Source: Microbotryum violaceum (lineage: Eukaryota). Taken from it: 64,000 nt of DNA. Shown in pieces: positions 12,668 through 62,570 of this stretch; positions within the stretch are counted from its first letter, which is position 1; each line of letters begins with the position of its first letter. The stretch is from positions 992,001 through 1,056,000 of the forward strand of contig CDLV01000004.1 in the NCBI GenBank assembly GCA_001244265.2. The letters run 5' to 3'. A model generated the notes under the pieces. The model ran no database searches. It worked only from the letters and a program-made list of their open reading frames with translations, and was not told the DNA's origin. Position numbers and translations under genes: made by a program.

Positions 12668-13002
12668 TGTTGTCTAGATGGTAGGCCATTGGTAACGAGG
12701 CAAGGCGCGCGCCCGGAGGCTCGATTGGTTTTAAGGCAGTGGATTAGATAGGTGTCTGAGTGGATTATAGTCTTGTGCGTGGGCCTATGCCTTCGCAAAG
12801 CAGACTCCCTTGTTTATTTTTTCTTTAATCACTCGTTCCTTGACTATCGGTTCTGACACTGCGCTGTGTATCATCCTACCGCTGCCACCTATATAGGTTA
12901 GTTGCAATACTTCAATCACTTGTTCCTCAACTATTGGTTCTGACACTGCGCTGCATATCATCCTACCGCTGCCACCTCTATAGGTGGTGCACTTTTACAG
13001 CA
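12668..13002 (+). mobile_element. Solo LTR (Copia-like, 335 bp) with TSD ACATG and intron-like unit 12897-12983
   Basis: TG...CA ends; ACATG at 12663-12667 and 13003-13007; ~70-bp internal direct repeat; TAG|GTTAGT...TAG. Confidence 0.85.
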
Positions 13003-21562: not shown

Positions 21563-23618
21563 AGGCGATTGGCCGAGCTCTCGAGCTGACGGAGTTGGGT
21601 CTCCGCCTCGAGCTGACGGAGGTGGGTCCTTGCCGGATTCTCAGTCGGTTTGTCGCTTTCTTCCTCGTCAGAAGTCACCCATGGATTGGCGTTGCGAGCG
21701 GGGCGCTTGCCTTGCACCAAGACCGCCGGCGCCGGTGGCGCATGAGCTGCCCGCGAGGGTGCCGGAGTAGCAGCCACCGTTATGATCCAACCGAGGTAAG
21801 GAGCAATGCTTGTATAGCACATCGTCCCCTTCGGGCAAGGCATCGAGGGGTACTTCACCTTCGATGAAGAGGTTGAAGCATACGATGAGACGGCCGTCCT
21901 GATCCAAATCGAGCTCGTCGACCGTAAAGACTGGCAAGTCACCTAGGCCGCGGATTGACGTAACGCGTCGTTCTAGATCACCATCTTGTCCGGGCCGCTC
22001 GTTGCGTCTGGTGTCACTTTGGCCGTCTTGAGCCGCCTGTCGACGTCTGACGCCGGAGGCGGTAGGATTGAAGACCCTTTGTCCAATAGCGCGCTCCGTA
22101 TGCAGCAATGTAGTCGGCAGGGCGAGCGGAACCCAGAGCGTGCGAAATGACCGGATGCATTTGCGCTTCCTCGAGTGATTTGATACTGATCGGGGTACCT
22201 CAAGGAAGTTTCTCAACTTGCAACTCCCAGAAGTTAAGGGCGGCAGGATCGAGCGCCATGCGTTCTAGCTCGGTTTTGAGGATCAATATATCGGCGTCCG
22301 TCAGGAGTCCGCCATCCGCCTCCGCCCATGCCTCCGCAATCTTAATGAGCGCCTTCTTGGTGAAGTTTCCCGAGGTAGGGATCGGATACGAGGAGTCCCA
22401 GGCGAGAGGCTCGTAAGGATCGGCAAAGGGGTCAACTGACATGATTATGATGGGTCGAGGCAAAGCGCAGCGAAGGTACGACCTAATATAGACGAAGATA
22501 GAACGACTATGCTTGTAAAGCGTGTGCAAAGACTCTGAGGACTATGGCATACCTATGCTTGTAAAGCGTGTCGCTTGGAGACAAGAAGACAGCAAAGGAA
22601 ACAGACCTCGGACGCTGGTACGTCGAGGTTGGGTCTGTGTAGCAAGGTAGCCAAGTCAGTCAACGTGTTCAACAAGGACAGTCAAGAGTAGGAGTACCCT
22701 AAGGTAGAGCCTGAAGGTGGGTGATGTACCTCAGCTCTTTGAGCAAGACGCAGGCGAACAGGAGAGAGGTGCAGCACTGGCAGGTGCGGGCGGACGGCTG
22801 CATACAAAGTATGGAGCGTCAGTCAACCATCCAACAAAGGAGTGTTGAAAAAGAGAGGCGTACACAGTGACAGCTGTTCTTCGTCAACTGGTAAGGCAGA
22901 AGACTGCAAGGCGGAAGCTGTACGGTATTGCTGGGGGGGGGGGGGGTCCTGTGAGGAGCTCGGAACCTGTCAGCCAATTGGCGGCAGGAAGAGTTCAAAG
23001 AAGGCCACTGACCTTGGCAGGAGGTGGCAGAGGTACACAGCGATACTGGTACGGCAACGGCAAGCAGTGGGAACTGAAAGGTGCGGCAGGAGCTGGCTTG
23101 GTAAACTCTTGCGCAAGTGCGGCTTACAGACCAAGGCTCGAGGCAGGCATGCGGCACACGGCTTATTGCAAGAGGGGCAGACGTGCGAGCACGGCTTACT
23201 GCAAGGAGGGTAGAGGTTGCGCACGCTTGAGTCCTTGGCGTCAAACTCTTGCAGCAAAAGCAGAAAAGACCATAAGTGGTCTTAGCAGTGGCGCGGGCGC
23301 GCGGGTGTTGTGCGGGGGACCGGTAGAGGTGGCAGAGGCGGCTGGTTGTTTACACGAGATTGCGTCTTTTTGGCCTAGCTGTGTTTTCTCTCTTCTCCAC
23401 CACGCACTCAATATCACATCTCGCCTAGTCACTCTGTTACAGTCGATTGACCTTTAGCGACCCACTATCTCACAATAGGTTAGTTGAAATACATTACCAC
23501 GCACTCGATATCACATCTCGCCTAGTCGCTCTGTTACAGTCGATTGACCTTTAGCGACCCACTATCTCACAATAGGTCATCTATCGACGTCACGTAACTA
23601 GAGACGCTCCTACAATAA

Positions 23619-28210
<4,592 letters not shown>

Positions 28211-28963
28211 TAGTCGCTCTGTTACAGCCGATTGAACTTTAGCAACCCACTATCTCACAATAGGTTAATTGAAATACATTACCACACACTCAAATATCAC
28301 ATCTCGCCTAGTTGCTCTGTTACAGCCAATTGACCTTTAGCGACCCACTATCTCACAATAGGTCATCCATTGACGCCATGTAACTAGAGATGCTCCTACA
28401 ACAACACATCTACTCACTCAACTCCATGTCTTGCCTCCTGCCAGTACGACCAACTTGCAGCATTTACTGCTGCAACCGACTCTTTGGACAAGGTTCTTGG
28501 GTTGACCAGCTTCGTACTCGACATTGACTCATTGCCAGCAGAAGCAACCATTACCTTGAGAGTGCGTATAGCTTCATGAGTTGACGGATTCTATGTCGCT
28601 GAGCTGACTCTTGATTGAAAATGTCACAGGTCTACAAGCACATCAAGGCTCAACTCCCATTCGTAAATATCACTACAAGACCTCAAGGCCGGGTAGATGC
28701 CCCTGTTCCAAGTGGCGCACCTTCTGCTTCCAAGCACGACTTGCTTGTCAAGGAAAAGCGTGAAGCATCTCCAAGCGACAGGATCTCCGGCAATCTATGT
28801 CCAAACACCGAACCATATTCAACGGATGACAAGCTTGTCAACAGTGAAGATCATGCGAATTTACCAATATATAGTGAAGGAAGGACAACAATGACGGACC
28901 TGATGCTCGAAGCATACCCACAAGAGATTGTTCTTGATCCTTGGTGGCCCAACGGGACTTGGG

Positions 28964-31440
<2,477 letters not shown>

Positions 31441-34400
31441 TATGAACCGCACGACTGCTCAAGTGGTGGTGAGTCTCTGATCAACGGACCAAGGAGACCA
31501 GACCAATGAAGTTGCTTGAGCAGGAGAGTGAGAAGTGCGGAGCCAGTTGGCTGGGGTAAGTGCGCAACCAGGTCTGTGCCCCAGTGTCAAGCCCACGGAC
31601 CCAGCCTGGAGGCAAGGGGAGCTAGGCGGAGAGTGACTAGGTCCGTGCACTTGATGCAGGTGCATAGACCAAGCCCAGTGATGAGAGAGCAGGGTGAAGG
31701 ACAGGCCAAAATCACAGAGAGGACAAGACAGAAAGAGGGAGATGATGTGAGAAGGAAGTAAAGAGAGTTGTAACTCTCACACCCCCCCTACTTCGAGCAT
31801 CAGGGAGCACAGACACCAAGTTGGCCGCGGTGCCAAGCAAAGAGGTCGCAAGACAAGGCCTTGGTGAAGATATCCGCCGTCATCTTGCTGGTGGCAATGT
31901 ATTGGACAACAATGTCGCCCATGGAGACCATATCCCGGACAAAGTGTTTGCGAAGCCAAATGTGTCGAGTGCAAGCATGGAAGACCGGGTTTTTGGTGAG
32001 AGCATTGGCACCCTGATTGTTGCCGTAGATGAGGACGGGCTGTGAAGAAGGGAGACCAAGCTCACCAAAGAGTTGGCGTAGAAAAATGGCCTCCTTGCCG
32101 GTGTGGGTCAGAGCAAGGTACTCGGTGTCGCAAGTGGAGTCGGCGACGCGTGACTGTAGACGGGAGGACCAGGAGACAGCGGCACCTGCGTAGGTAAAGG
32201 TGTAGCCCATAGTCGATTTGGAGGAGAAGAGGCATGCACCCCAGTTGCAGTCCGAGTAGCCGACCAAGGGAGCCGGATCACCACGAGTGTAGCGTAAGCC
32301 GTGAGACAGGGTGCCGGCAACGTAGCGGAAGGCGTGCTTGATCGCACCCCAGGCAGCAGCAGACGGTGAACGAGAGAAGCGGGCCAGATATCCGACGGTG
32401 TAGGCGAGGTTGGGACGCGTACCGGTAGAAGCATACATAAGAGAGCCGATCGCTTGCAGGTACCGAGTTCGATCCGGGAATGGGGTGGGTTGGAGTTCGA
32501 CTTCGAGGTGGAGATCGGGCTGCATGGGTGTGGCGACAGAGTGAGCATTGGACATACCGAAGCGGGCAAGAACGTCCTTGAGGTACTGCTCCTGACTGAG
32601 GGTGATGGAGCCGTCGTTGGAGCCCCGAGTTTGGATGCCGAGGATGTATTCTGCCTCACCAAGTCGTTTGACGCCGTAACGCTGCTCGAGACCGTGGAGG
32701 GTACGCTCGATCTCTGGGAGAGAAGGGCTGATCATGAGCAAGTCGTCAACGTAGAGCGCAATATAGTGACGCTCATCACCGGCCGCCCGAACGTAAACGC
32801 AGTGGTCCGACTCCGTGGCGGTGTAGCCGAGAGCCGACAAGGCAGAGTCGATCTCGTCATTCCAAATACGTCCAGCCTGGCGCAAGCCGTAGAGAGAGCG
32901 GTGCAGCTGGAGAACCTTGCCCGGCATGTAGACTCCATTGGGTACGCGAATGTAGAGTGGCTTGTCCAATTTACCGTGGAGGTAGGCCTTGTCAATGTCG
33001 GCCTGATGGATGTGGTAACCATGGACGGCTGCGAGGGCAAGGAGTGCGCGAATGGATGTGAACTTAGCGACGGGTGCGAAGGTCTCGTCAAAATCGATGC
33101 CCCAGCGCTGAGAGTCGCCAAGGGCAACAAGTCGGCCTTTGTAAGACTTGACCTGGCCGTGCTGGTCGCGTTTTGTACGGAAGACGAATCGAGAGCCGAG
33201 AATCCTGGCATCTGCAGGCACGAGGGACTCATCAATTGGTGTGAAAGCGGAGAAATTGCGGGAAAGTGAGTCGAATTCGGCCTGGGCAGCGAGACGCCAC
33301 TCGTCAGCTTGAGGGGTTGCCATTGCAGCACGCCAGTGAGGGGGATCCCGGGCGGGCGCGATCAGTTCCGTCGAGTCCGTAGGCGCGGTGTTGAGCAAGG
33401 CGACGGCGCCGGAGGCAAGGTGGGCGACGGGTGGAGGCGAGTGGAGAGCGTCGTCCAGGTCGTCGGGAAATTCGGGTGCGAGACAGACGGAAGCGATGTC
33501 AACCGAGTGTGGCAAAAGGTCGATAGGGTCGGGGGACTCGGATCGAGTGGGCGAGGACGGCGCGGGCAACGGACGTGGCACCACCGGTCGAGGGGATGGA
33601 CAAGGCGTGGAGATTGCCGAGTTGGAGCTGCCCTGGTCAGAGGCGTAGGTGTCGGGGGAGTCCTGTTCAGGGAGGCCACCAGTACGGTTGATGAGGGAGC
33701 CTTGGTTAGAGGCAGGAAGAGAGCCTTGGTCGGAGGCAGGAGGAGAGCCTTGGTCAGAGGCAGGGCACGCGCGTGAGTCCTGGTCAGGGAGGACGCGGGC
33801 CTTGGTCAGAGGCAGCGGGCGCGGGTCCTGGGGGCTCGGCGCGAGGCGCCAGAGAGTGAGGGGAAGCAACGAGCGACGGCTCAGAGTGGTCTACCTGGTT
33901 GGGGTGAATGTCGGCGGCCACAGGAAGTGGAGTGGTGCCAGTGTGGTGTTGGCCACACTCTGCAAGGCAGGGAACTCAGATTCACGAAAGACGACGTTGC
34001 GACTGAGGAGGATTTTGCATGTAGCCGGGTCGAATAGGCGATACGCCTTTGCGTGGTAATCGAGCCCTACAAACATGAGCGGCACAGCCTGGGATCGAAG
34101 GCGGTGCGCTTAACCGAGGGAAGGCAGTGCCACGCACGACAACCGAAAGCACGTAATGAGGATACATCCGGTGGAATGCCATACCAACGAGTGTCAGGGA
34201 TATCACCGCAAATGCCTGCATGCGACATCAAGTTCTTGCAGTGTACAAAGTACGTGGCGGCCTCAGCCCAGAGGCGCGTGTCAGCACCGGCCGAGTAGAG
34301 TAAAGCAAGGATACCCTCTTTGATGGTGCGGTTGGTGCGTTCAACACGTCCGTTTTGTTGAGGGGTGTACGAAATAGTGAGCTCGCGACGTATACCCTTG

Positions 34401-36634
34401 GCCACACAGAAATCGACAAAGTTCCGAAGAGTGAACTCGCCACCATTGTCAGAGCGAATGGTCTTTACCCAATCACCCGTGGCGTTCTCTACCTCAAGAA
34501 TCCAGGCGCGGAGACGGTGAAAGACGTCACTTTTGTGAGTGAGGAGGATGCACCAATGTTTGCGGGTGTAGTCGTCGACAATCACAAGCATGTAGCGATG
34601 ACCGCCAAAGCTGGCCCGAGGCATTTGGGCAACATCGACGTGGACGAGGTCCAGGTGGCCGGACGCAATGGACTTGGAATGAGCAAAAGGGAGGGCATGC
34701 GCTTTGGAAGCGAGACAAGCATTGCAATTGAAAGACCTAACCTCTTCCTCTGAATATACCCAATCCACCCCAGTGACCAAACCTTTCTGCACGACGCTCT
34801 TAAGTTGCGCGACGGGTAAATGCGCAAAGCGACAGTGCATAGTCAGCAAGGAAACTCTGTGAGGGGTGGCTAGGAGGGCATTGGGCATACAGGGTGAGGG
34901 TGCGACAGTTAACGCGTATAGGTCATTTGCGATTGCTTGTGCCATGGCGACGACGGTGCCGGAGGAGTTGCGGATTGTGGCGCGGCCGGAACCAAAGAAG
35001 GTGGTGAAGCCAAGTCGATCCAGACGACGGAACGATAATAAGTTGCACGGGAGCGAAGGTACTAAGAGTACGTCGGTCGCTACAACGGGGCCAGCTGAAG
35101 TCGAGAGACGGATGGAGCCACAACCGGTGGACGGGAGGGAACCGGCAACTCCAGCAATGTGCAGGCCAGCGAACGGCCGGAGGGTGGAGAAGAGCTGGCT
35201 GTCGTTGGCCATGTGGCGATTAGCGCCGGAGTCGAGGAGCCAAGCCGACTTGGGAAAGGCAGACGGGGTGGCGAGGAGGCACACTGTGAAGGTGGCGGGT
35301 TCTGGCTTCTTGTCGACGGCAGGGGAGGTGACGGCAGGAGAGGCGACGGCGCAGGAACCCTTCTTGTGATTTCGTGAAGTCGCTCCGGCGGCAGCCTTCC
35401 GGGCGCAGAAGGTGGCGGCTCAGGCGGTGTCGGGACAGTCCCGAAGCCAGTGCATCTTTCGACAAGAGGGGTTGGGGCAAGGGCTATGAGGGACGCGTTG
35501 CTGAGAGGTGGTAGTGGCGGCAACGGGTGAGTCGACCGGACGAGCCTTGATCTCGTGGTAGATATGGTCGAGGATCTCGGCGGCAGGGGGCAGTGTACGG
35601 GATGTGCCCTGAGAATTGACAAACATTGTCCGCCAGGCGGAGAGGAAGGCATCCGGGCGAGCAAGTGTGACGCTAGTAGAGAATCCGTCGTCAACTTTGA
35701 GTCGTCGAGGAGGCGCGAGTCGTTCTCAAATTGGTCGCGAAACTGAAGGAACTCGTCAGCGGTGTCGGGCATAGGGTCGGGACTGAAGAGTTGAGAGATG
35801 ACAGGGAGAAGATCGACCGCCGAGACAGCACCATATCGCATGCGCAGAGCTACCCAAATATTGTGACCGCTGCGAGGGTCGCCGAAGTATTGCGAGAGGC
35901 CGGGAAGAACCATCTGAGGATCGACGGTGGCGCAGATCGAGGCGCGAGCGTAGTGATCCCATAATGAAACGTAAGATGGCGGCCAGGACAACAAAGGGAC
36001 GCCAGACTGAAGGTAGTCAATAACGTTGGAGGGCAGACGGGAGCATAGCGTCAGGACCCAGTCTTGATAGCTGTTGGTGTTGCGCAGAAGGTCAGAAGCA
36101 GCGAAGGCTGCGGCCTGTGTGGGGGGGCGCGGTGGGGGGACCGCGAGCGTTGAGGACTTGAGGGCGTCATCGGACATGCCAGGCGTGCAGGGTGCAGGGC
36201 GAGGCTGAGTTGTGCAAAGCGCGAAAAAAAAAAAAAAACGACGCGGGCGGGCACGGAGGTGACCGCGCTGGTAGCTTGTTGTGGCTTATAACCTATGAAC
36301 CACACGACTGCTCAAGCGGTGGTGAGTCTCTGATCAACGGACCAAGGAGACCAGACCAATGAAGTTGCTTGAGCAGGAGAGTGAAAAGCGCGGAGCCAGT
36401 TGGCTGGGGTAAGTGCGCAACCAGGTCCGTGCCCCAGTGTCAAGTGCACGGACCCAGCCTGGAGGTAAGGGGAGCTAGGCGGAGAGTGACTAGGTCTGTG
36501 CACTTGATGCAGGTGCCTAGACCAAGCCCAGTGATGAGAGAGCAGGGTGAAGGACAGGCCAAAATCACAAAGAGGACAAGACAGAAAGAGGGAGATGATG
36601 TGAGAAGGAAGTAAAGAGAGTTGTAACTCTCACA
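31441..36634 (-). mobile_element. Ty1/Copia family D copy 1, LTRs 31441-31781 and 36294-36634 (341 bp, intron-less)
   Basis: PBS GGTTATAAGCC; G-rich PPT; WLLDSGAN, RSDNGGEF, YVDD, ADIFTK; flanks belong to different elements, no TSD. Confidence 0.93.
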
Positions 36635-40808: not shown

Positions 40809-43800
40809 GCGAGCCTGGGAAACTTGGGGCGCGCGGCTCTCACACTGTTAGCTTCCTATTCATCACTCTTGGCTAGAACTACATCGCTGACGTAGTAGAG
40901 TTGATCGAATAGGTTATAAGCCCAACGAGCTACCAGCCCGCCGCTCGCTCGCAATTTTCCTCGAGCCCAGCCACTCGAGCCGCCCACGTCCATCGCACCA
41001 TCGCACAATGGACAGTAGCGACCCCACCACGCCTTCGTCCCCAGGGACCCCAACCCTCTTGCGTCTTCGATCACCGATCAACTCGCTACCCTGCAGGCCC
41101 AGCTCGCCGCCCTGCAGGCCTCGCAGCCCCTGCCGCCACCGCCTCGCTGCCCCTGCCGCCCCCGCCTCTGCCGCCGCTGCTCGCAGCCCACTGCCGCCGC
41201 CGCCGCCGCCACCACCGCATCAAAAGTCGTCTTTCCCAAGCACGCTCGCCTAGACGGCTCCAAGTCGTTCACAAACTGGTTACGCCAGCTCCGGCTCACG
41301 CTTCCGAATCAGATTCGTGGTTACGTCCTTGATGGAGTTGTTCCCCGACGTGGACGGCCGACCAGCTGGCCGCTCGTGACGACGCCGCGCGGGAAATTAT
41401 CGTCGGCTCCATCGACTCCGCCGACGTCTCGGCAACCCTCGACGCCATCCCAAGCGACGACCTGTCGGCGCCACGCATCTTCACCGCTCTCAAGGCTCGT
41501 TTTGCACCGGACAATGCTACCCGCACCCTCGAGTTGTTCGCCCGCCTTTGGGATTTCAGGAAGATGCCTGCCTCCGTCGAGGCATATGACACCTGGCTGC
41601 GCGAGTACATGTCCATCGTACAAGAAATTCGCGACGCCAAAACTTCGCTCAACGACGTACTCGCCACTCACGTGCTTGCCATGGTCCCGTCGTGCCTCGA
41701 CAGCTTCCGACTCACGTTCACGGACGAGCAACGCAACCAACGCGACCTTCCCGAGCTGACGACGCTGACCGACCGCATTCGCGTCCAACTTCGTTCGGCG
41801 GGGCTCTCCACCTCGCACTCGGCCATGCTCGCTACCGCCTCCCCATGCCCCGCCTGCCGCGCCCCCGGTCACCGCCTTCGTGACTGCACCTCACGCGCTC
41901 AATATTCGATCAACTCTACTACGTCAGCGGTGTAGTTATAGCCAAGAGTGATGAATAGGAAGCTAACAACAAAAGAGCCACGCGCGCCAAGTCCACAGCC
42001 AGCGAGCCTCGGGGGTGAGCCAATGGCCCAGGCTCGCTCCGCGCGCCTAAGTCCCAGCCTCGCTCTGTGCGCCTAAGTCCTGGGCCGGGGCGCCCGGCTC
42101 GCTCCGCGCGCCTAAGTCCGCGCCCGGTTCGCTCCGCGCGCCTAAGTCCTGAGCCGAGCGGAGAGTGGATTCCTCACACCCCCCCCACGCGAACGCGAGG
42201 TAGACTTGAGCCGTGGATGTTGCGTCCGGAGGCCTAGAGCAAAGCAATGTGTACCAAAAATCTTGGGGCCTAGCGCTTTGGTGAAAACGTCCGCAACCAT
42301 GTCTGCTGTGCCAACGTGAGAGAGAGAGATATCACCTCGATTGACCATGTCACGGACAAAATGCTCGCGGAGGCGAATGTGCCGGGTGCCGGAGGTGCGA
42401 ACGGGGTCGTGAGCGACGGCGGCCGCGGCCTCGTTGTCGGTGAAGATGTGAGCTGCAGCGATTGGTGAAACGTGGAGCTCGGAGAGGAGTTGGGTAAGGT
42501 AGATCGCTTCCTTACCCGCGTGCGACAAGGCCAGGTACTCGGCATCAGTGGTGGAATCTGCTACCCGAGTCTGACGCTTCGACGACCAAGAGACGGCGGC
42601 GCCTGCCAAGTAAAATACGTAGCCCATCGTTGAGATGGATGTGTCGACGCAGGCGCCCCAGTTCGCATCAGAATAACCAACCACACCCGTGACTTTTGCT
42701 GGGCCGCGGGCATAGAGAAGCTCATCGCGGTACGTGGCGCGAAGGTAGCGAAGGACGTGTTTGACGGCAATCCAATGGCGGCGGCCGGGGTTGTTGGCGA
42801 ACCGGGACAGGTACGAGACGGCGAAGGCAATGTCGGGTCGAGTGCCAAGGGAGATGTAAAGGAGGGAGCCGATGGCCTGTAGGTACCACGAACGAATGCG
42901 CTCCGTTCCCTGACCCGGAATTGCCGTGAGCGAGAGGCCGGGCGTCATCGGCACCGTAGTGCCGCGTGTCGTGGTGTCAAAGTGGAAACGGGCTAGCACG
43001 TCCATGATGTAGCGCTCCTGGGATAGAGCAATGGAGCCGTCGTCCAGGCGGCGGATTTGGATTCCGAGGATGTACTCCGCCGGGCCGAGTCGTTTAACGC
43101 CGTATCGCTGTTCAAGGCCGCAGATGACACGTTCAATCTCGTCGAGGTGGGGACTGACAATGAGGAGGTCGTCGACATACAAGGCGATATAGTGAGGCCG
43201 CTGCTGATCGTCAATGCGAGAGTAAATGCAGTGATCAGTGCCTGTTGCCTTGTACCCGAGATTCCTGAGTGATGTGTCAATGTGACGATTCCAGATGCGA
43301 CCGGCCTGCTTGAGACCGTAGATTGAACGTCGCAGCCGGAGAACCTTATCGCTCGGGAAGTCGAAACCTCGTGGTGTCGTCATCCAGATATCATGATCGA
43401 GCTCGCCGTGTAGGTAAGCCTTGTCGATGTCGGCCTGATGAACGTGGTAGCCGTTGGCAGCGGCAAGAGCCAAGAGGCAGCGAATGGAGGAGAAGCGGGC
43501 GACGGGTGCGAAGGTTTCTGAGAAGTCGATGCCGTTGCGCTGTCGGTTACCCTGCGCTACAAGACGTGCCTTCCGCCCCGTGACTTCACCGCTGGCGTTG
43601 CGCTTGGTCTTCCAGACGAATTTGGAGGTGACGATGGTGGCGCCCGGCGGTACGGATGAGCGAGGCTCGATGGTGAACACCTTGAAGTCGTCGCGCATGG
43701 CGGTGAACTCGGTGGCGGCAGCCTCAGCCCAGATGTTGTGCTCGTCGCTGGACATTGCTTCGCGCCAGGTTTGGGGGTCGCTAGTGATCGATTTGACGGG

Positions 43801-46509
43801 CTCGATGGCGTCGAGGGTGGGGTCGTCGTCGTCTGTGGCGATGAAAGCGCGGTGGTGACGAGAGAGGAAATCGATCTCATCGGGGGAGTCGTCATCGGAG
43901 GGCTGCCCAACGGGGTCAACGGCTGGTGCCTGCGTCTCTGGTGTGTCGTCGTCGGATCGATGCACGTCCATCAGGTTGAGGCGAACCGCGGTGTTGGAGC
44001 TGAGGAGATCAAGCGGGTCATCCGAGTCGTTGAGGGACGGATCCCTGGCCGAGGACGTGGCCGGCGACGAAAATGGGGAAAGCGATGGAGACGACGAAGA
44101 GCGAGTGTCTGTAGAGTTAAGTAAGGATCCGCCAGTGTACCCTGGGGCCACGTCAACGGCGCTCATGGCAGAATCATCAAGGGAGGATGAGACGTCCATG
44201 TGCGCCGACCTTACTAGTGGGGTCCTCGTCTTGACGGCAGGGGCGGGCGTGTCGGCGGGAACAACGAACTGACGGTCGGTGTCGTCCGCATCAACGGGCG
44301 TGGTGACTGGCAGGCCGGGGAAGTCGTTGTCGAGGAAGGTGGCATTGCGACCAAGCACAATCTTATTGATGGAATGGTCAAAGAAACGGAAAGCTTTGGA
44401 GGCGAGGTCGTAACCTGTGAAGATCACGCGCGCGGCCTTGGGGTCGAGCTTGCTGCGACGGTCCGGGGCGACCGTGAGCCAGGCTGTGCAGCCGAACGGG
44501 TGGAGGGCGGTGGTGGTGGTGCGTTGGCCGTTCCAAACAAATTCTGGAGTCTGTTTGGCCAAAGCTGAGTGTGAGCATCTGTTTTTGCAATAAACGAAAT
44601 ACGCAGCCGCTTCATCCCAAAAGGTGGCCGGCAGACGGGCGTCCGCAAGGAGAGCGAGGACGCCCTCGACGATGGAGAGGTTGACACGTTCGGCGCGACC
44701 GTTTTGCTGAGGCGTGTAAGGGATAGAATATTGGCGACGTATGCCCTTGGACTTGCAGAACTCCGTAAATGCGTTTGATCGATACTCCCCGCCATTGTCG
44801 GTTCGAAGGATTCTCAAACGTGCGTTCGTCGCTAACTCCACTTCGGCGAGCCAAGTCTGGAAGATCGGGAAGACGTCGCTCTTGTGATCGATCGCATATG
44901 CCCAGAGTTTGCGAGAGTGGTCGTCGAGGAATGTGACAAGGTAGCGCTTCCCGGTCAAGGACGGAGTGGGAAACGACAGGACATCGCTGTGCACGAGGCC
45001 AAGTCTCTCGGGGAATGCGACTCAGAGTCAGGAAAAGGGAGACGGTGGCCTTTGGAACCAAGGCAAGCATTGCAAACAAACTCTTCCACGTCTTTGTCAC
45101 TGTACCCGGCCCCAAACCCGTCCAGCAAACCTGCAGCAATCATCTTCTGTATAGAGGATGGGGCAAGATGGCCGAGGCAGCGGTGTAGGGTAAGCAGGGG
45201 CACGGGGGACTCAGAGCGTGAGAGAAAGGCAAGATGCTGACACTTGGTGTGATCCGCGTCCAAAAGGTAAAGACCATCGTTGACCCTGGTACCGTGAGCG
45301 ATGGCCTGGTCGTCCTTGGTGATGTCGATGCCGTCGCTGGTGAAGGCGAGGCGAACCCGGTCGGTGTCGCAGAGGCGAGCGACAGAGAGGAGGTTGACGT
45401 GGAGGCCAGGCGTGTGGAGAACGCCACGGAGTGTGATCGGGTGTCCAGTCTTGGCGACGAATGCCACGTCCCCCACGCCGATAGCCGTGATGCCACCCGC
45501 GATGCCGCCGATCTTGGTGTGTGCCGTCTGACGATAAGTCGTGAACAGAGATCGGTCGGCGACCATGTGTGTCGTGGCGCCCGAATCGACTACAAAGGCG
45601 TCAGTTGGGAGTTGGCGACGAGCGAACAGGCAGGAGGCGAAATAGCCGACGTTCGGTTGCAAAGCCGCGGAGGAAGACGTGTCGTCCTGGGTGTCGTCGC
45701 TGCGACGTGCCTGTTCACCCCGGTTCTTGCAGTCAAGTGCCCAGTGACCTTTCTTTTGGCATCGGCGGCAGGGGCCGGTGGGCGGGTGCTTCGCACGTGA
45801 AGTGCAGTCGCGCAGGCGGTGACCGGAGCGCGGCAGGCGGGGCAGGGGGAGCTGGTGGCAAGCATGGCCGAATGCGAGGTCGAGAGTCCTGCCGAACGAA
45901 GCTGGATGCGAATGCGGTCCGTAAGCGTCGTGAGTTCGGGAAGGTCGCGTCGGTTTCGCTGCTCGTCCGTGAACGTGAGTCGGAAGCTGTCGAGGCAAGA
46001 CAGGACCATGGCGAGCACGTGGGTGGCGAGCACGTCGTTGAGCGATGTTTTGGCGTCGCGTATTTCCTGAGCAATCGACATGTACTCGCGTAGCCAAGTG
46101 TCGTAGGCCTCGACGGAGGCAGGCATCGTCCTGAAGTCCCAAAGGCGAGCGAACAACTCGAGAGTGCGTGTAGCGTCGTCCGGTGCAAAACGAGCCTTGA
46201 GAGCGGCAAAGATGCGCGGTGCCGACAGGTCGTCGCTGGGGATGGCGTCGAGGGTGGCCGATACGTCGGCGGAGTCGATCGAGCCAACGATGATGTCCCG
46301 GGCGGCGTCGTCACGGGCGGCAAGCTGGTCGGCGGTCCAGGTCGGGGCATGACACCGTCGAGAACGTAACCGCGAACCTGGTTGGGAAGCGCAAGACGGA
46401 GTTGACGCAACCAGTTGGTGAACGACTTGGGGCCGTCCAGACGAGCGTGCTTGGGAAACACGACCTTGGATGCGGTGGCGGCGTTCCCCGGCACGGCGGT
46501 GACGGCCGG

Positions 46510-46544
<35 letters not shown>

Positions 46545-49500
46545 GTTGCGAGGCCTGCAGAGCGGCAAGCTGGGCCTGTAGAGTGGCGATTTGTTCGCGA
46601 TCGAAGATTCAGGGGAGCTGGGATCCCTGGGGGCCAAAGGCGAGGCGGGAGAGCTGTCCATGATGTGATGGTGCGATGGACGTGTGCGGCTCGAGTGGCT
46701 GGGCTCGAGTGAAAAAAAACGCAAGCGGCGGGGCTGGTAGCTCGTGGGCTTATAACCTATTCGATCAACTCTACTACGTCAGCGGTGTAGTTATAGCCAA
46801 GAGTGATGAATCCATTTCAACATACCTATTCGATCAACTCTACTACGTCAGCGGTGTAGTTATAGCCAAGAGTGATGAATAGGAAGCTAACAACAAAAGA
46901 GCCACGCGCGCCAAGTCCACAGCCAGCGAGCCTCGGGGGTGAGCCAATGGCCCAGGCTCGCTCCGCGCGCCTAAGTCCCAGCCTCGCTCTGTGCGCCTAA
47001 GTCCTGGGCCGGGGCGCCCGGCTCGCTCCGCGCGCCTAAGTCCTGAGCCGAGCGGAGAGTGGATTCCTCACACTCAACACCCCCCACCGGCCCCTGCCGT
47101 CGCTGCCACAAGAAGGGTCACTGGGCCCTCGACTGCAAACCGCGAGGCGACCAAAACCGAACCGGCGACAACAACCAGGACAACACCCCCTCATCGGCGG
47201 CTCAACAACCGAATGTTGGCTATTTCGCCTCCTGCCTGCTCGCTCGCCGCCATCTCCCGACCGACGCCTTCATCGTCGACTCGGGCGCCACGACTCACAT
47301 GGTCGCCGACCGCTCCCTGTTCACGACTTATCGTCCAACGGCACACACCAAGATTGGCGGCATTGCCGGCGGTGTCACGGCCATTGGCATGGGGGATGTA
47401 CCGTTTGTTGCCAACACCGGACACCCGATCATGTTGCGCGGCGTTCTGCACGCGCCGGGCCTTCACGTCAACCTTCTCTCCGTCTCTCGCCTTTGTGACA
47501 CCGACCGCGTTCGGCTTGCCTTCACCAGCGACAGCATCGACATCACCAAGGACGGCCAGGCCATCGCTCACGGTACACGGGTTAACGACGGTCTCTACCT
47601 CCTGGACGCGGACCACACCAAATGTCAGCAGCTTGCCTTTCTCTCACGCTCTGAGTCTACCGTGCCCCTACTTACCCTCCACCGCTGCCTCGGCCACCTT
47701 GCTCCATCCTCTATACAGAAGATGATCGCTGCGGGTTTGCTGGACGGGTTTGGGGCCGGGTACAGTGACAAAGACGTAGAAGAGTTTGTTTGCAATGCTT
47801 GCCTTGGTTCCAAAGGCCATCGTCTTCCTTTTCCCGACTCGGAGTCACATTCCCCGAGAGACTTGGTCTCGTGCACAGCAATGTCCTGTCGTTTCCCACT
47901 CCGTCCTTGACCGGGAAACGCTATCTTGTCACCTTCCTTGACGACCACTCTCGCAAACTTTGGGCATACGCAATCGATCACAAAAGCGACGTCTTCCCGA
48001 CCTTCCAGACTTGGCTCGCCGAAGTGGAGTTAGAAACGGACGCGCGTCTACGAATCCTCCGCACCGACAACGGCGGCGAATACCGATCCAACGCGTTCAC
48101 GGAGTTCTGCCAGTCCAGGGGCATTCGTCGCCAATACTCTATTCCATATACGCCTCAGCAAAACGGCCGTGCCGAACGTGTCAACCTCTCCATCGTCGAG
48201 GGCGTCCTCGCCCTCCTTGCTGACTCCCACCTGCCGGCCACTTTTTGGGACGAAGCGGCTGCATACTTCGTTTATTGCAAAAACAGGTGCTCACACTCAG
48301 CTTTGGCCAAACAGACTCCACAATTCGTTTGGAACGGCCAACGCACCACGACCACCGCCCTTCACCCGTTTGGCTGCGCGGCCTGGCTCACGGTCGCGCC
48401 GGACCTTTGCAACAAGCTCGACCCCAAGGCCGCGCGCGTGATTTTTACTGGTTACGACCTCGCCTCCAAGGCTTTCCGGTTCTTCGACCATTCCACCAAC
48501 AGGGTTGTGCTTGGCCGAAATGCCACCTTCCTCGACGACGACTTCCCTGGCCTACCAGTCAACACGCCCGTCGATGCGGACGACGCCAAACGCCAGTTTG
48601 TCATTCCCGCCGACACACACGCCACCGCCGCCACACCCGCTCCCGCCGTCAAGACGAGGACCCCACTAGTAACGTCGGCGCACATGGACGTCTCATCCCC
48701 TCTTGATGATTCTGCCATGAGCGCCGTTGACGTGGCCCCAGGGTACACTGGCGGATCCTTACTTAATTCTACAGATACCAGCCCCTCGTCGTCTCCGTCG
48801 CTCGCCCCGATTTCGTCTCCCGCCCCGTCCTCAGGGGGGGTACCGTCCATCGAGGACTTGGATGATCCGCTTGACCTTCTGCACTCCGACACCGCGGTTC
48901 GCCTCCGCCTGATGGACGTACATCGATCCGACGACGACACCCTGGTCACACCCACTGCCGCCGTTGGCCCCGGGCAGCCCTCCGACGACGACTCCCCTGA
49001 TGAGATCGATTTCCTCTCTCGTCATCACCGCGCCTTCATCGCCACCGACGACGCCGACCCCACCCTCGAAGCCATTCAGCCGGTCAAATCGATCACTAGC
49101 GACCCTCAGACCTGGCGTGAAGCGATGTCCAGCGACGAGCACGACCTCTGGGCTCAAGCCGCCTCCGACGAGTTCACCGCCATGCGCAACAATTTCAAGG
49201 TGTTCACCATCGAGCCTCGTTCCTCGTACCACCGGGCGCCACCATCGTCACCTCCAAATTCGTCTGGAAGACCAAGCGCAATGCACAGGGTGATATCACA
49301 GGGCGGAAGGCACGCCTGGTCGCGCAGGGTAACCGCCAGCGCGACGGCATTGACTTCTCAGAGACGTTCGCACCCGTCGCCCGTTTCTCCTCCATTCACT
49401 GCCTCCTCGCCCTTGCTGCTGCCAACGGCTATCACGTTCATCAGGCTGACATCGACAAGGCTTACCTTCACGGCAAGCTTGATCACGACATCTGGATGAC

Positions 49501-51108
49501 GACGCCACGAGGTTTCGACTTCCCGAGCGACCAGGTTCTCCGGCTGCGGCGCTCGATCTACGGTCTTAAGCAGGCCGGTCGCATCTGGAATCGCCACATT
49601 GACACATCGCTCAGGAGTCTTGGGTACACGGCAACGGGCACTGATCACTGCATTTACTCTCGCGTTGATGATCAGAAGCAGCCCCATTATATCGCATTAT
49701 ATGTCGACGATCTCCTCATTGTCAGCCCCGCCCTTGACGAGATTGAGCGTGTCATCTCCGGCCTCGAACAGCGATACAGCGTCAAACGACTCGGCCCTGC
49801 AGAATACATCCTCGGCATCCAGATTCGACGCCTGGAAGACGGTTCCATTGCTTTATCTCAGGAGCGCTACATCATGGACGTGCTCGCCCGCTTTCACTTC
49901 GACACCACAACGCGCGGCGCTACGGTGCCAATGACGCCCGGCCTCTTGCTCACGGCAGTACCGGGTCAGGGAACGGAACGCATTCGGTCGTGGTACCTGC
50001 AAGCCATCGGCTCCCTCCTATACATTTCACTTGGCACTCGCCCCGACATTGCCTTCGCCGTCTCGTATCTGTCCCGGTTCGCCAACAACCCCGGCCGCCG
50101 CCATTGGGTCGCCGTCAAACACGTCCTTCGCTACCTTCGCGCTACGTACCGTGATGAGCTACTCTACGCCTGCGGTCCAACCAAGATTACAGGGGTGGTT
50201 GGCTATTCCGATGCAAACTGGGGTGCCTGCGTTGACACGTCAATCTCCACAATGGGCTTCGTCTTTTACTTGGCCGGCTCCGCTGTCTCTTGGTCATCGA
50301 AGCGTCAGACTCGGGTAGCAGATTCCACCACTGATGCCGAATACCTCGCCTTGTCGCACGCTGGTAAGGAGGCCATTTACCTCACACAACTCCTCTCCGA
50401 GCTCCATGTTCGCCCGATCGATGCAGCCCACATCTTCACCGACAACGAGGCCGCGGCCGCCGTCGCTCACGACCCCGTTCGCACCTCCGGCACTCGGCAC
50501 ATCCGTCTCCGCGAGCACTTCGTCCGCGACATGGTCAACCAGGACGATATATCCCTCTCCCACGTTGGCACAGCGAACATGGTTGCGGACCTATTCACCA
50601 AAGCGCTAGGTCCCAAGATTTTTGGTACGCATTGCTATGCTCTGGGCCTCCGGATGCGACACCCACGGCTCAAGTCTACCTCGCGTTTGCGTGGGGGGGG
50701 TGTGAGGAATCCACTCTCCGCTCGGCTCAGGACTTAGGCGCGCGGAACAAGCAAGGCGCATTGGCTCAGGACTTAGGCGCGCGGAGCGAGCCAGGCGCAC
50801 ACAGCCCCAGGACTTAGGCGCGCAGGGCGAGCCTGGGCCATTGGCTCAGCCCCAAGGTTTGCAGCCTGAGGACGTGAGGCGCGCGGCTCTCTTGTTGTTA
50901 GCTTCCTATTCATCACTCTTGGCTATAACTACATCGCTGACGTAGTAGAGTTGATCGAATAGGTTATAAGCCCAACGAGCCACCAGCCCGCCGCTCGCTC
51001 GCAATTTTCCTCGAGCCCAGCCACTCGAGCCGCCCACGTCCATCGCACCATTGCACAATGGACAGTAGCGACCCCACCACGCCTTCGTCCCCAGGGACCC
51101 CAACCCTC
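40808..51108 (+). mobile_element. Copia family C copy 2: partial 5' LTR to 40911, 3' LTR 50701-50961, then a second PBS/leader (tandem unit)
   Basis: gag from 41008 interrupted at 41902 and resuming at 47078; pol to 50737; 50962-51108 repeats 40912-41058. Confidence 0.88.
41903..47072 (-). mobile_element. Copia family C copy 1, full length, TSD CTCAA, inserted antisense in the gag of copy 2
   Basis: LTRs 46758-47072 and 41903-42178; CTCAA at 41898-41902 and 47073-47077; 950-aa IN-RT-RH ORF at 42142-44994. Confidence 0.95.
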
Positions 51109-57645
<6,537 letters not shown>

Positions 57646-58067
57646 TGAATGTTGAACAGAAGTGGTCTATTTCAGCATACCTATGAGACGATCACCACTA
57701 CTGTCAGGAGAGGTTGAATGTTGAACAGAAGTGGTGAGAGGGAAGCTAAGAAACAGAAAGGGACCCGCGCTGAGATAGGCCCAGTCGCGGGTGAAGTTGC
57801 TAGCGCGCTAAGGCAGGCGCGCGCGCCTAAGTCCCCACCGCAAGGGGGCGGCCTAGTGGGCACCCGCACGGATCTATTCGATCAACTCTACTACGTCAGC
57901 AATGTAGTTATAGCCAAGAGTGATGAATCATTTCAACATACCTATTCGATCAACTCTACTACGTCAGCAATGTAGTTATAGCCAAGAGTGATGAATAGGA
58001 AGCTAACAGTGAATGAGCCGCGCGCCCAATTTCTCAGCCAGTGAGCCTCAGGGCTGACCCAATAGGC

Positions 58068-58292
58068 CAGGCTCGTTCCGCGCGCCTAAGTCCCGAGCCA
58101 TTTCGCCCGGCTCGCTCCGCGCGCCTAAGTCCCGACCTGATGCGCCCGGCTCGCTCCGCGCGCCTAAGTCCCGACCTGATGCGCCCGGCTCGCTCCGCGC
58201 GCCTAAGTCCCGAGCCGAGGCGCCAGGCTCGCTCCGCGTGCATAGGTCCGTGCGCGATGCGCCCGGCTCGCTCCGCGCGCCTAAGTCCTGGA
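58068..58292. repeat. GC-rich ~39-bp tandem units (GGCTCGCTCCGCGCGCCTAAGTCC core) in the U3 of family C LTRs
   Basis: Copy number varies among LTRs at 42030-42150, 46955-47045, 50730-50830 and 61651-61830. Confidence 0.85.
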
Positions 58293-61200
58293 CCGAGCGG
58301 AGAGTGGATTCCTCACACCCCCCCCCACGCGAATGCGAGGTAGACTTGATCCGTGGGTGTCGCGTCCGGAGGCCTAGAGCATAGCAATGTGTACCGAAAA
58401 TCTTGGGGCCAAGCGCTTTGGTGAATACGTCTGCAACCATGTTTGCTGTGCCAACGTGTGAGAGGGAGATATCACCCGATTTACCATGTCGCGGACAAAG
58501 TGTTTGCGGAGGCATATGTGTCGAGTGCCAGAAGTGCGAACGGGGTCGTGAGCGACGGCGGCCGCGGCCTCGTTGTCGGTGAAAATGTGAGCTGCCTCGA
58601 TTGGACGAACATGGAGCTCGGAGAGGAGTTGTGTAAGGTAAATCGCTTCCTTACCAGCGTGCGACAAGGCGAGGTATTCGGCATCGGTGGTGGAGTCTGC
58701 TACCCGAGTCTGACGCTTCGATGACCAAGAGACGGCGGAGCCGGCCAAGTAAAATACGAAACCCATCGTGGAGATGGATGTGTCGACGCAGGCACCCCAG
58801 TTTGCATCAGAATAGCCAACCACACCTGTAATTTTGGGTGAACCGCTGGCGTAGAGTAGTTCATCGCGGTACGTAGCGCGAAGGTAGCGTAGGACGTGTT
58901 TGACGGCAATCCAATGGCGGCGGCCGGGGTTGTTGGCGAACCGGGACAGATACGAGACGGCGAAGGCTATGTCGGGGCGAGTGCCAAGGGAAATGTATAG
59001 GAGAGAGCCAATGGCTTGTAGGTACCACGACCGAATGCGTTCCGTTCCCTGACCCGGGACTGCCGTGAGTGAGAGGCCGGGCGTCATTGGCACCGTAGCA
59101 CCTCGGGTTGTGGTGTCGAAATGAAACCGGGCGAGCACGTCCATGATGTAGCGCTCCTGGGAAAGAGCAATGGAACCGTCTTCCAGGCGGCGGATTTGGA
59201 TGCCGAGGATGTATTCCGCGGGGCCAAGTCGTTTGACGCCGTATCGCCGTTCGAGGCCTGAGATGACACGTTCGATTTCGTCTAGGGCGGGGCTGACAAT
59301 GAGGAGATCGTCGACATACAAGGCGATGTAGTGGGTTTGCTGCTGATCATCAATGCGAGAGTAAATGCAGTGATCAGTGCCCGTTGCCCTGTACCCCAGA
59401 CTTCTGAGCGATGTGTCAATGTGACAATTCCAGATGCGATCGGCCTGCTTAAGACCGTAGATCGAGCGCCGCAGCCGGAGAACCTTGTCGCTCGGGAAGT
59501 CGAAACCCCGTGGCGTCGTCATCCAGATATCGTGATCGAGCTCGCCGTGCAGATAAGCCTTGTCGATGTCGGCCTGATGAACGTGATAGCCATAGGCAGC
59601 GGCAAGAGCGAGGAGGCAGCGAATGGACGAGAACCGAGCGACGGGTGCGAAAGTCTCCGAGAAGTCGATGCCATCGCGCTGACGGTTACCCTGTGCTACA
59701 AGGCGTGCCTTCCGCCCTGTGATATCACCGCGTGCATTTCGCTTGGTCTTCCAGACGAATTTGGAGGTGACAATGGTGGCGCCCGGCGGCACCGAGGAGC
59801 GAGGCTCGATGGTGAACACCTTGAAATCGTCGCGCATGGCTGTGAACTCGTCGGCAGCAGCTTGAGCCCAGAGGTCGTGCTCGTCGCTGGACATCGCTTC
59901 GCGCCAGGTCTGAGGATCGCTAGTGATTGATTTTACGGGTTCAATGGCTTCGAGGGCGGGATCGTTGTCGTCTGTGGCGATAAAGGCGCGGTGATGGCGA
60001 GAGAGGAAGTCGATCTCGTCAGGTGAGTCGTCATCAGAGGGCTGCCCAGCGGAGGCAACGGCGGGTGTGGTTGTCACCAGGGTGTCGTCGTCGGACCGAT
60101 GTACGTCCATCAGGTTGAGGCAAACCGCGGTGTTGGAGTTGAGAAGGTCAAGCGGGTCATCCGAGTCATCGATGGACGGTCCCCGGCCGAGGACGTGGCG
60201 GGAGACGAAAACGGGGGGAGCGACGGAGACGACGAAAGACTGGTGTCTGTAGAATTAAGTAAGGATCCGCCAGTGTACCCTGGGGCCACGTCAACGGCGC
60301 TCATGGTAGAATCATCAATAGAGGATGAGACGTCCATGTGCGCCGACCTTACTAGTGGGGTCCTGGTCTTGACGGCGGGGCGGGCGTGCTGGCGGGGGCG
60401 GGCGTGCTGGCGGGGCGCGGCGTGCTGGTGGGGACGCACGTGTCGGCGGGGATGGTGAACTCGCGTTCGGTGTTGTCCGCATCGACTGGCGTGTTGGCTG
60501 GGAGGCCGGGGAAATCGTCGTCGAGGAAGGTGGCATTTCGGCCAAGTACAATCTTGTTGGCGGAATGGTCGAAGAAACGGAAGGCCTTGGAGGCTAGGTC
60601 GTAACCGGTGAAAATCACGCGCGTGGCCTTGGGGTCGAGCTTGCTGCGAAGGTCCGGCGCGACCGTGAGCCAGGCCGCGCAGCCGAACGGGTGGAGGGCG
60701 GTGGCCGTGGTGCGTTGGCCGTCCCAAGCTAATTCGGGGGTCTGTTTGGCCAAAGCTGAGTGTGAGCACCTGTTTTTGCAATAAACGAAGTACGCAGCCG
60801 CTTCATCCCAGAAGGTGGCCGGCAGATGAGAGTCAGCAAGGAGGGCGAGGACGCCCTCGACGATGGAGAGGTTGACACGTTCGGCACGACCGTTTTGCTG
60901 AGGTGTGTAGGGAATAGAGTATTGGCGACGAATGCCCCTGGACTTGCAGAACTCCGTAAATGCGTTGGATCGGTACTCGCCGCCGTTGTCGGTGCGAAGG
61001 ATCCTTAAACGTGCGTCCGTCTGTAACTCCACTTCAGCGAGCCAAGTCTGGAAGGTCGGGAAGACGTCGCTTTTGTGATCGATCGCGTATGCCAGAGTTT
61101 GCGAGAGTGATCGTCAAGGAATGTCACAAGGTAGCGCTTTCCGGTCAAGGACGGAGTGGGGAACGACAGGACATCGCTGTGCACAAGGCCAAGTCTCTCG

Positions 61201-62021
61201 GGGGAATGCGACTCCGAGTCGGGAAAAGGGAGACGGTGACCTTTGGAACCAAGGCAAGCATTGCAAACAAACTCCTCTACGTCTTTGTCACTGTACCCGG
61301 CCCCAAACCCGTGTAGCAAACCTGCGGCAATCATCTTCTGTATAGAGGATGGGGCAAGATGGCCGAGGCAGCGGTGGAGGGTAAGCAGGGGCACGGGGGA
61401 CTCGGAACGTGAGAGCAAGGCAAGCTGCTGACATCTGGAGTGATCCGCATCCAAAAGGTAGAGCCCGTCGTTAACCCTGGTACCATGAGCGATGGCCTGG
61501 CCGTCCTTGGCGATGTCGATACCGTCGCTGGTGAAGGCGAGTCGAACGCGGTCGGTGTCGCAGAGGCGAGAGACGGAGAGGAGGTTGACGTGAAGGCCCG
61601 GCGTGTGCAGAACTCCACGCAGCGTGATCGGATGTCCGGTCTTGGCAACGAGGCGCGCGGAGCGAGCCGGGCGCATCGCGCACGGACCTATGCGCGCGGA
61701 GCGAGCCTGGCGCCTCGGCTCGGGACTTAGGCGCGCGGAGCGAGCCGGGCGCATCAGGTCGGGACTTAGCGCGCGCGGAGCGAGCCGGGCGAAATGGCTC
61801 GGGACTTAGGCGCGCGGAACGAGCCTGGCCTATTGGGTCAGCCCTGAGGCTCACTGGCTGAGAAATTGGGGCGCGCGGCTCATTCACTGTTAGCTTCCTA
61901 TTCATCACTCTTGGCTATAACTACATTGCTGACGTAGTAGAGTTGATCGAATAGGTATGTTGAAATGATTCATCACTCTTGGCTATAACTACATTGCTGA
62001 CGTAGTAGAGTTGATCGAATA

Positions 62022-62052
<31 letters not shown>

Positions 62053-62155
62053 ATGGGTTCAAGCCCCCTGGGGTCAGGCAATTTTGCGCGCACCCCGCAC
62101 TTGCCTTCAAAGCCGCACCCACTGCCACAAGCTCTTCAGCTTCGCGCACAGGGGG

Positions 62156-62250
62156 TGTTGAACCTCCCTCCATCTCACTTCTAGGACAATATGCGCTCCC
62201 TGAAGTAGAGGTGCCTCTCCTTTTGGTGCAGTGGTATATTGCTCCTAATA
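62156..62250 (+). repeat. 95-bp mini-LTR (TGTTGAAC...TAATA), preceded by a G-rich PPT and followed by PBS GGTTATGAGC
   Basis: Inverted near-identical copy at 62355-62449. Confidence 0.75.
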
Positions 62251-62570
62251 GGTTATGAGCTCGTGCGATGTGTGATGGACGTGTGCGGCTCGAGTGGCTG
62301 AGGCTCGAGGAAAAAAACGCGAGTGGCGGGCTGGTAGCTCGTGGGCTGATAACCTAATAGGAGCAATATACCACTGCACCAAAAGGAGAGGCACCTCTAC
62401 TTCAGGGAGCGCATATTGTCCTAGAAGTGAGATGGAGGGAGGTTCAACAGGATCCACCGGCGCTGGCGCGCTGAGTCAGTCGCGCGCGTCTAAGTCCCAG
62501 CGCAGGGGGCGGGCTAGCGGGTGCGCGCAACGACCGAGGCGCCTCTGCCGAGCTGAGAGTGGACTTGTCA

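Follow-up and report, generated by a model that had tools for sequence, protein, structure and literature searches.

Retroelements replicate via RNA, so that a spliced intron should be lost in their progeny. Spliced RNAs are nevertheless known from retrotransposons with long terminal repeats (LTRs), among them the gag mRNA of Drosophila copia and the RNA of Ogre with its intron. In retroviruses, the major splice donor lies in the 5′ leader and the unspliced RNA is the genome. Template switching by reverse transcriptase (RT) deletes or duplicates direct repeats, as in retroviral vectors. When a segment containing AGGT is duplicated in tandem, a functional intron can result, according to the part of the article available (PMC3265369). 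For the retrotransposon Ty5, the available part of a preprint gives a primer-binding site (PBS) complementary to an initiator tRNA-Met half molecule/anticodon stem-loop (bioRxiv 10.1101/2025.04.25.647736). Here, we analyzed 64,000 nucleotides of Microbotryum violaceum (assembly GCA_001244265.2, contig CDLV01000004.1, positions 992,001 to 1,056,000 of the forward strand), called the window below, in which several families of Ty1/copia retrotransposons carry a duplicated LTR tail with intron-like bounds. The site in question marks where a tandem duplication of the presumably transcribed LTR tail (X, probably R-U5, the repeat and unique 5′ regions) ends on its 3′ side, in an element with a putative anticodon-loop-type tRNA-Met PBS. 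We tentatively read the resulting 68-98-nt unit as a facultative spliceosomal intron of the 5′ leader, born by AGGT tandem duplication, a plausible reading that falls somewhat short of probable.

The anatomy is laid out in element d, a family C copy on the minus strand whose two ends are fixed by the target-site duplication (TSD) TTGAG at 47077-47073 and 41902-41898. Its 5′ LTR (46827-47072, TGTGAGG...GATCGAATA) matches the 3′ LTR at 246/246 positions except for one 30-nt repeat unit in U3, the unique 3′ region. The 3′ LTR (41903-42178), preceded by a G8 run, has a single X and ends ...GAATA, followed by TTGAG (41898-41902) and hence by no AG. The last 54 nt of the 5′ LTR, X1 (46827-46880), start with A after a pyrimidine-rich stretch (...GTTAGCTTCCT) and end ...GATCGAATA. 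From these features we infer that X1 is the transcribed R-U5 tail, an 'exon X', and that transcription starts at X1. Behind X1 the strand reads GTATGTTGAAATGG and then enters X2; this spacer (46812-46826, GGTATGTTGAAATGG) is a motif kept across families, its first G completes ATAG, and it holds the donor-like GTATGT. X2 (46758-46811) was found by repeat comparison to be an exact second copy of X1, with a 55-base exact run that includes the following G, and it carries CTGAC 22 nt before the final AG. It ends ...GAATA and is directly adjoined by G-GTTATAAGCCC, the start of the PBS (46733-46757, GGTTATAAGCCCACGAGCTACCAGC, beginning GGTTATAAGCCC), about 25 nt of which are common to the PBSs of families C and E. 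This PBS is putatively of the anticodon-loop, or half-tRNA-Met, type, a name taken from the accessible part of the Ty5 description (bioRxiv 10.1101/2025.04.25.647736). The start codon of gag follows at 46659-46661 (ATG at 46661). According to the TSDs, the LTRs proper of d share sequence only up to X1; because the 3′ LTR has a single X, the 69-nt block counts here as sequence outside the LTR proper, placed after it and before the PBS. In other copies (57941-57874 and 57680-57613) the block falls inside a 3′ LTR.

The candidate intron of d (46757-46825, minus strand) thus has the form GTATGT...CTGAC...ATAG. The first-pass annotation of this DNA had proposed that its acceptor AG is made of the last LTR base and the first PBS base, and these are indeed A46758, the last base of X2, and G46757. 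The same annotation held that X ends in ATAG and that splicing would recreate GAATAG next to the PBS. This anatomy was correct, since deletion of 46825-46757 (69 nt) would yield ...GAATAG joined to GTTATAAG, that is, X1 with an intact PBS.

How such a unit would come about and work can be put simply. As X ends in AG and GT comes next, a tandem duplication would make AG/GT...AG/GT (a slash marks a junction). The first AG/GT junction would then serve as donor (GTATGT, with G at +5), X2 would supply the branch-like CTGAC, and the second junction, which falls on the LTR/PBS border in families C and F, would be the acceptor. Splicing would restore the unduplicated leader, with X joined to the PBS, while unspliced RNA would carry the unit into the progeny. 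We ranked this intron reading first because the lengths of 68-98 nt, the G at +5, CTGAC, and the GT...CAG bounds of family E described below all fit it. The U2-type hallmarks found are a GT in an AG/GT..G context and a branch-like motif before the AG.

The arrangement recurs in the window. Four copia families (C, F, G, and J) share the order X - GGTWWGYTGMAAT - X, and the motif ATAGGTWWGYTGAAAT, with up to one mismatch, gave seven matches against 0.01 expected, a number reached in 0/100 shuffles; each of the seven lies between two direct copies of X. Family C has the spacer GGTATGTTGAAATG(G) and a period of 68-69 nt on the 5′ side of d, in the 5′ LTR of copy c, and in the 3′ LTR of copy e. In c, the 68-nt unit (61955-62022, plus strand) ends ATAG and is followed by GTTATGAGCCC; in e (57874-57941, minus strand), it stands at the end of the LTR, where the opening base of the TSD GATCC supplies its final G. 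The family F 3′ LTR ending at 57613, which the first-pass annotation had called 'E' and for which its reading CTCATA/TG was accurate, has a copy of its own X on either side of the spacer GGTATGCTGAAATAG (57613-57680, minus strand, period 68 nt). Family G has the spacer GGTTAGTTGAAATACATT and a period of 97-98 nt in both LTRs. Its 5′ LTR holds a 97-nt unit GTTAGT...AATAG (23479-23575, plus strand), followed by 45 further LTR bases (23576-23620) and the PBS at 23621, and its 3′ LTR holds a complete unit inside the LTR (28264-28361, plus strand) with the donor decayed to GTTAAT. Family J is present as one copy at 12.9 kb with X - GGTTAGTTGCAATACTTC - X (12897-12983, plus strand), a period of 87 nt, and X copies that are 89% alike.

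Between families, X aligns only at its first bases and its last four (ATAG), and the spacer is kept at 12/13 bases between C and F and at about 10/13 to G and J. Within a copy, X1 equals X2, with 55-base exact runs in d, c, and e and a match judged by reading in F; in family G, X1 and X2 depart from each other by a few G/A changes at CG sites, which its two LTRs do not share. Family C comprises two subfamilies told apart by two positions of X, where d has the form CACCGCT and both c and e have CATTGCT. As each variant sits in both X1 and X2, the two copies evolve in concert while the spacer is held. Every X1 starts with A behind a pyrimidine-rich tract. In family C, the CTGAC of X stands 22 nt ahead of the terminal AG; the distance is 23 nt in F and 41 nt in J, and G has TTGAC. 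The motif was judged against a general fungal branch consensus, from which the consensus of the host introns may differ, the window being without a confirmed host gene. The donor contexts are ATAG/GTATGT in three units, GTATGC in one, GTTAGT in two, and GTTAAT in one, the decayed old copy, so that six of the seven units have G at +5. AG/GT stands at both junctions in five of the seven (d, c, both LTRs of G, and J), and the units of e and F, at 3′ LTR ends, run into the flank. Similarity of the spacer to the 5′ start of the LTR was not significant in a shuffling test whose coordinates were a few bases off (239/2000 and 460/2000 shuffles reached the score).

These regularities also bear on the view that the unit has no function and is a neutral tandem duplication in a few related dead copies of a transposon graveyard. 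The region is a nest of broken, rearranged elements, and d itself has two frame breaks. However, the spacer was kept while X diverged, X1 equals X2 in each family, and the LTRs of d, identical at all 246 compared positions, mark this copy as young. We therefore consider an absence of function very unlikely.

Family E provides a separate case. The element at 51285-56816 (TSD CGCGC) carries a different, non-homologous unit, Y. Its 5′ LTR has, behind Y, three units of 70, 72, and 72 nt (51615-51828, plus strand) that start GTGAGC or GTGTGT and end GAGCAG, giving the donor contexts CAG/GTGAGC and CAG/GTGTGT and the general bounds GTG.G....CAG. The last unit is followed by TTGTGC, which is not donor-like, and then by the PBS at 51843. 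The 3′ LTR (56661-56802) has one 72-nt unit fewer than the 5′ LTR. In E2, an E-like element of greater age (31.4-36.6 kb), each LTR holds just one Y.

The same data can be accommodated without splicing. The element would then have an ordinary U3-R-U5 LTR in which U5 repeats R, with misalignment during strand transfer and slippage altering and homogenizing the units. The spacer would be a 3′-end formation signal, a start-site element, or an integrase tip, and GT...AG a side effect of duplicating X together with the first PBS bases. This explanation is a serious possibility, although one we regard as rather less than probable. The first six bases of the spacer do resemble the PBS minus one base (GGTATG or GGTTAG versus GGTTATG). 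X2 has exactly the same starting point as X1, a point that is putatively the 5′ end of the RNA. The unit therefore has the extent of the strong-stop DNA template with 10-18 nt added, which suggests that reverse transcription made it. Of the four elements with both LTRs in the window, d and E have LTRs that are unequal by one unit, whereas the numbers are equal in G and E2. Moreover, the whole 16-nt block including TGAAAT is conserved, beyond the needs of a donor; we take this block to resemble a yeast 3′-end formation motif. On the other hand, family E lacks the C-type spacer and still keeps the GT..G...CAG bounds, with a non-donor TT after its last unit, which a 3′-end signal does not explain. 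CTGAC was kept in X of three families though the rest of X diverged past easy alignment, and a transcribed leader of this shape would presumably be hard for the spliceosome to ignore in an intron-rich fungus.

Several observations weigh against the intron reading itself. The difference in unit number between the LTRs of one element implies fast repeat turnover, and such turnover could also homogenize X1 and X2. Element AB, a family C copy at 40.8-51.0 kb that hosts d, has two single-unit LTRs, as does E2, so that at least one round of transposition could do without the unit. DNA copies with a single X, the form that splicing would be predicted to yield, occur at 40912, 50962, 56960, and 36293; they do not discriminate, because polymerase or RT slippage gives an identical product, and slippage on the repeat explains the single and double forms equally well. 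TG(A/C)AAT is conserved behind the donor-like hexamer, and we know of no splicing role for it. In family C, AGs 5, 8, and 10 nt past the adenine of CTGAC could compete with the terminal AG. Finally, a 96-nt 'H unit' found at one end of the insertion at 57870-62454 is significantly similar to the spacer tail plus X (4/2000 shuffles reached the score), and it begins at TGTTGAA exactly at the TSD-defined integration boundary. The spacer tail may thus be a terminus or another signal, and this start likewise suits a repeat that is not spliced. Short Logan contigs from four runs (three guessed to be RNA, one DNA) over 42200-47078 showed no 68-69-nt joint at 46757/46826, which says nothing either way, since the contigs break at the 55-nt repeat and the guessed-RNA runs do not cover 46812.

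Beyond the anatomy, the first-pass annotation had proposed that the acceptor G is normally absent at the 3′ LTR and that this amounts to a built-in asymmetry allowing splicing at the 5′ LTR only. Eleven PBS-like matches were found in the window. Ten adjoin an LTR end, and all ten read A/GG with a PBS beginning GGTTAT (general form GGTTAT(G/A/T/C)AG); the eleventh (55334) sits inside pol. This border is forced by the LTR end and the PBS type: an A-ending LTR that meets a G-starting PBS must give AG, and the border AG taken alone therefore signals nothing. The G is missing at five of six 3′ LTR ends (41903 ATA/TT, 56816 ATA/CG, 31441 ATA/AT, 57613 ATA/TG, and 28406 ACA/CA). The sixth (57875 ATA/GA, copy e) obtains one as the first base of its TSD GATCC and so has an AG by chance. 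The asymmetry itself did not prove general. In family G, the unit ends AATAG/GTCATC 45 nt before the LTR end and is complete in both LTRs, and in family J, GTGGTG comes after the second unit in place of the GGTTAT-type PBS. We conclude that the A/G border is a by-product of LTR end and PBS type, not a device limiting splicing to the 5′ LTR.

That asymmetry was part of a model in which the unit is spliced at the 5′ end, kept in the 3′ LTR for want of the acceptor G, and regenerated in each cycle. Strong-stop DNA, the copy of X1 in the spliced RNA, would anneal to the downstream X (X2) of the unspliced 3′ LTR and copy back the spacer, X1, and U3, and with them the intron. X2 would be overwritten by X1 in every cycle, which directly accounts for the identity of X1 and X2 despite the fast divergence of X from family to family. 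Families C and F have the complete AG/G only beside the PBS, given the five 3′ ends out of six without G. The model also predicts a single X when strong-stop DNA anneals to X1 and a double X when it anneals to X2, and both forms occur. However, it needs transcripts that run through the whole 3′ LTR, with a U5 of about zero length, which is unusual. Family G, keeping the full AG/GT unit inside both LTRs, offers no asymmetry, and the internal AGs of the family C X could be acceptors in the 3′ copy. The model is no better than the standard one at producing d, with its double 5′ and single 3′ end, and fast slippage can homogenize X1 and X2 without it. We consider regeneration unlikely.

Among the ten PBSs next to an LTR, the triplet at the anticodon-complement position is ATG, the complement of the CAU anticodon, in three, ATA in five (families C and E alike), ATT in one, and ATC in one; the repeated G-to-A change in two families would be odd if it were mere decay. 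In copy c, the PBS continues for 40 nt (62022-62061, plus strand). The complement of this stretch fits cloverleaf positions 1-40, with a 7-nt stem strand, a D arm with GG, and a CAU anticodon loop, and looks as if the whole 5′ half of the primer tRNA had been copied in. The Rfam tRNA model gave no match to these 40 nt.

Other features of these copies were recorded along the way. The gag-pol frame of d shifts twice, at 45009 and 46343, leaving three overlapping open reading frames (ORFs), and d is therefore a broken copy despite its identical LTRs; in one DNA sequencing run, most other copies differ at these two places by a single-base insertion or deletion. The spacers at 46812-46826 (C) and 57667-57681 (F) hold upstream ATGs, two in C and one in F, with none in G and J. 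In unspliced RNA, these would be predicted to open short reading frames before gag. U3 of family C is made of tandem repeats of about 39 nt (GGACTTAGGCGCGCGGAGCGAGCC..., at 58006-58317, 61653-61848, 50699-50856, and 46927-47050), whose number varies among copies and between the two LTRs of d.

Element AB (plus strand) consists of 40822-41902 and 47078-50961, interrupted by d. Its 3′ LTR leads, at 50962-51065, into a PBS and then a leader of about 100 nt, until a family F LTR cuts in. Since PBS and leader come after this 3′ LTR, two elements share one LTR in tandem there. The flanks of E2 (31441-36632, minus sense) are not a direct 5-bp duplication; they seem to resemble each other as inverted sequences (...TCCTCCA/ and /ATACCATGGAGGA), a sign that two copies may have undergone recombination or inversion with each other.

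The segment 57870-62454 (minus sense) is one insertion in a family F LTR, with the TSD GATCC on either side (62454-62450 and 57874-57870); an intact version of the target, GGTGGATCCGTGCG, is seen at about 51225-51238. A long family C LTR with a double X forms the 3′ end of the insertion. The 5′ end consists of the H unit alone (TGTTGAACC...TATTA), with a PBS and then a C-type leader behind it. Such unlike ends are not predicted by the standard scheme of LTR replication. At 62155-62449, two copies of H unit plus PBS, 99% alike, stand head to head around an 80-nt leader in a palindrome-like arrangement, and the plus-strand copy has a G5 run before it. This arrangement may be a snap-back product of reverse transcription.

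LTR retrotransposons form a nest that occupies the window between about 12 kb and 64 kb. A self-comparison showed related copia families, several in number and present in either orientation, that are inserted into one another. The GC content here is about 0.52-0.62. The ORFs near the site contain zf-CCHC, Pol_BBD, gag_pre-integrs, rve, SH3_retrovirus, and RVT_2 domains. Specifically, the ORF at 42142-45021 (minus strand) has rve at residues 8-104, SH3_retrovirus at 165-235, and RVT_2 at 457-693, and that at 44955-46310 (minus strand) has zf-CCHC, Pol_BBD, and gag_pre-integrs. As integrase precedes RT and gag has a CCHC knuckle, the elements around the site are Ty1/copia (Pseudoviridae), and they have the corresponding structure of two LTRs, a polypurine tract, a PBS, and a 5-bp TSD. 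Gypsy-type copies lie at 1.8-5.2 kb and 30.1-31.5 kb. Gypsy-type stretches at 626-2234 and 28964-30571, which have RT/RNase H domains, are 28.3 kb apart and 99-100% identical. Either both copies are very young, or the stretches belong to a segmental duplication that encloses the 12-28 kb copia nest.

Searches for relatives and RNA features gave little. A tRNA scan found no tRNA genes in the window, and Rfam gave no match in it at gathering scores; 46600-47100 was empty at E values up to 1, and 62015-62075 gave only a chance match to a long non-coding RNA. No relative was found among viral contigs scanned with the pol protein, and a protein atlas returned only generic copia clusters without a useful taxon. 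A metagenome scan with ATAGGTATGYTGAAAT gave at least 119 matching stretches; among the matches listed, none had the flanking repeat with a GGTTAT PBS, and one AT-rich locus (L114) met a loose repeat filter by chance.

The unit matters in either case. Splicing of the unit would show a way for a retrotransposon to have a leader intron upstream of the PBS, and the unit would then be a recurrent natural example of introns born by AGGT duplication. If it also regenerated itself, which we think improbable, the element would profit in its expression from a spliced 5′ intron, its fungal host being intron-dependent, without losing the intron through the RNA cycle. This would explain how X1 stays equal to X2 while X evolves fast and would add a novel device to reverse transcription. 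Even an unspliced unit would remain an R-U5 module that is both duplicated and conserved and that bears a signal, and a clear example of RT slippage making the LTRs of one insertion unequal, which matters for LTR-based dating.

In the literature, searched at the level of result listings, we found no description of an intron-like unit between LTR and PBS, nor of a duplicated R-U5 tail with a conserved spacer. The copia and Ogre introns are a precedent for splicing in such elements, but they lie in the coding part, and to our knowledge none of them duplicates the R-U5 tail or ends at the PBS. The unit has in common with retroviral leaders a donor in the 5′ leader of a reverse-transcribing element, where spliced and unspliced RNAs could differ in fate. 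Here, however, the donor and the whole intron are upstream of the PBS, so that the spliced RNA would keep the PBS and the coding part and could possibly act as a template. The unequal unit numbers in the LTRs of the otherwise identical elements d and E recall template switching, but slippage alone fails to explain a spacer common to four families or the GT...AG bounds in family E. With the Ty5/Drosophila copia type, the elements share the domain order gag (CCHC) - protease - integrase - RT and 5-bp TSDs, and their PBS starts GGTTATGAG, containing the complement of the CAU anticodon in its loop context. They differ from it in LTRs that end ...ATA and not in the CAACA tip given for Ty5 in the available part of its description (10.1101/2025.04.25.647736), and in an LTR tail that is tandemly duplicated with a conserved spacer; the tRNA complementarity is putative. 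Introns born by AGGT duplication, an idea of Rogers (Hellsten et al. 2011, PMC3265369, in the part available), likewise have a 3′ part repeating the upstream exon, AG/GT at both junctions, and a removal that restores the original sequence. The difference is that the present candidate intron sits in the non-coding leader of an RNA-replicating retroelement, in several families and with a fixed spacer. The unit can thus be placed, with a putative function, as a variant of two known kinds, the copia elements and the AGGT-duplication introns.

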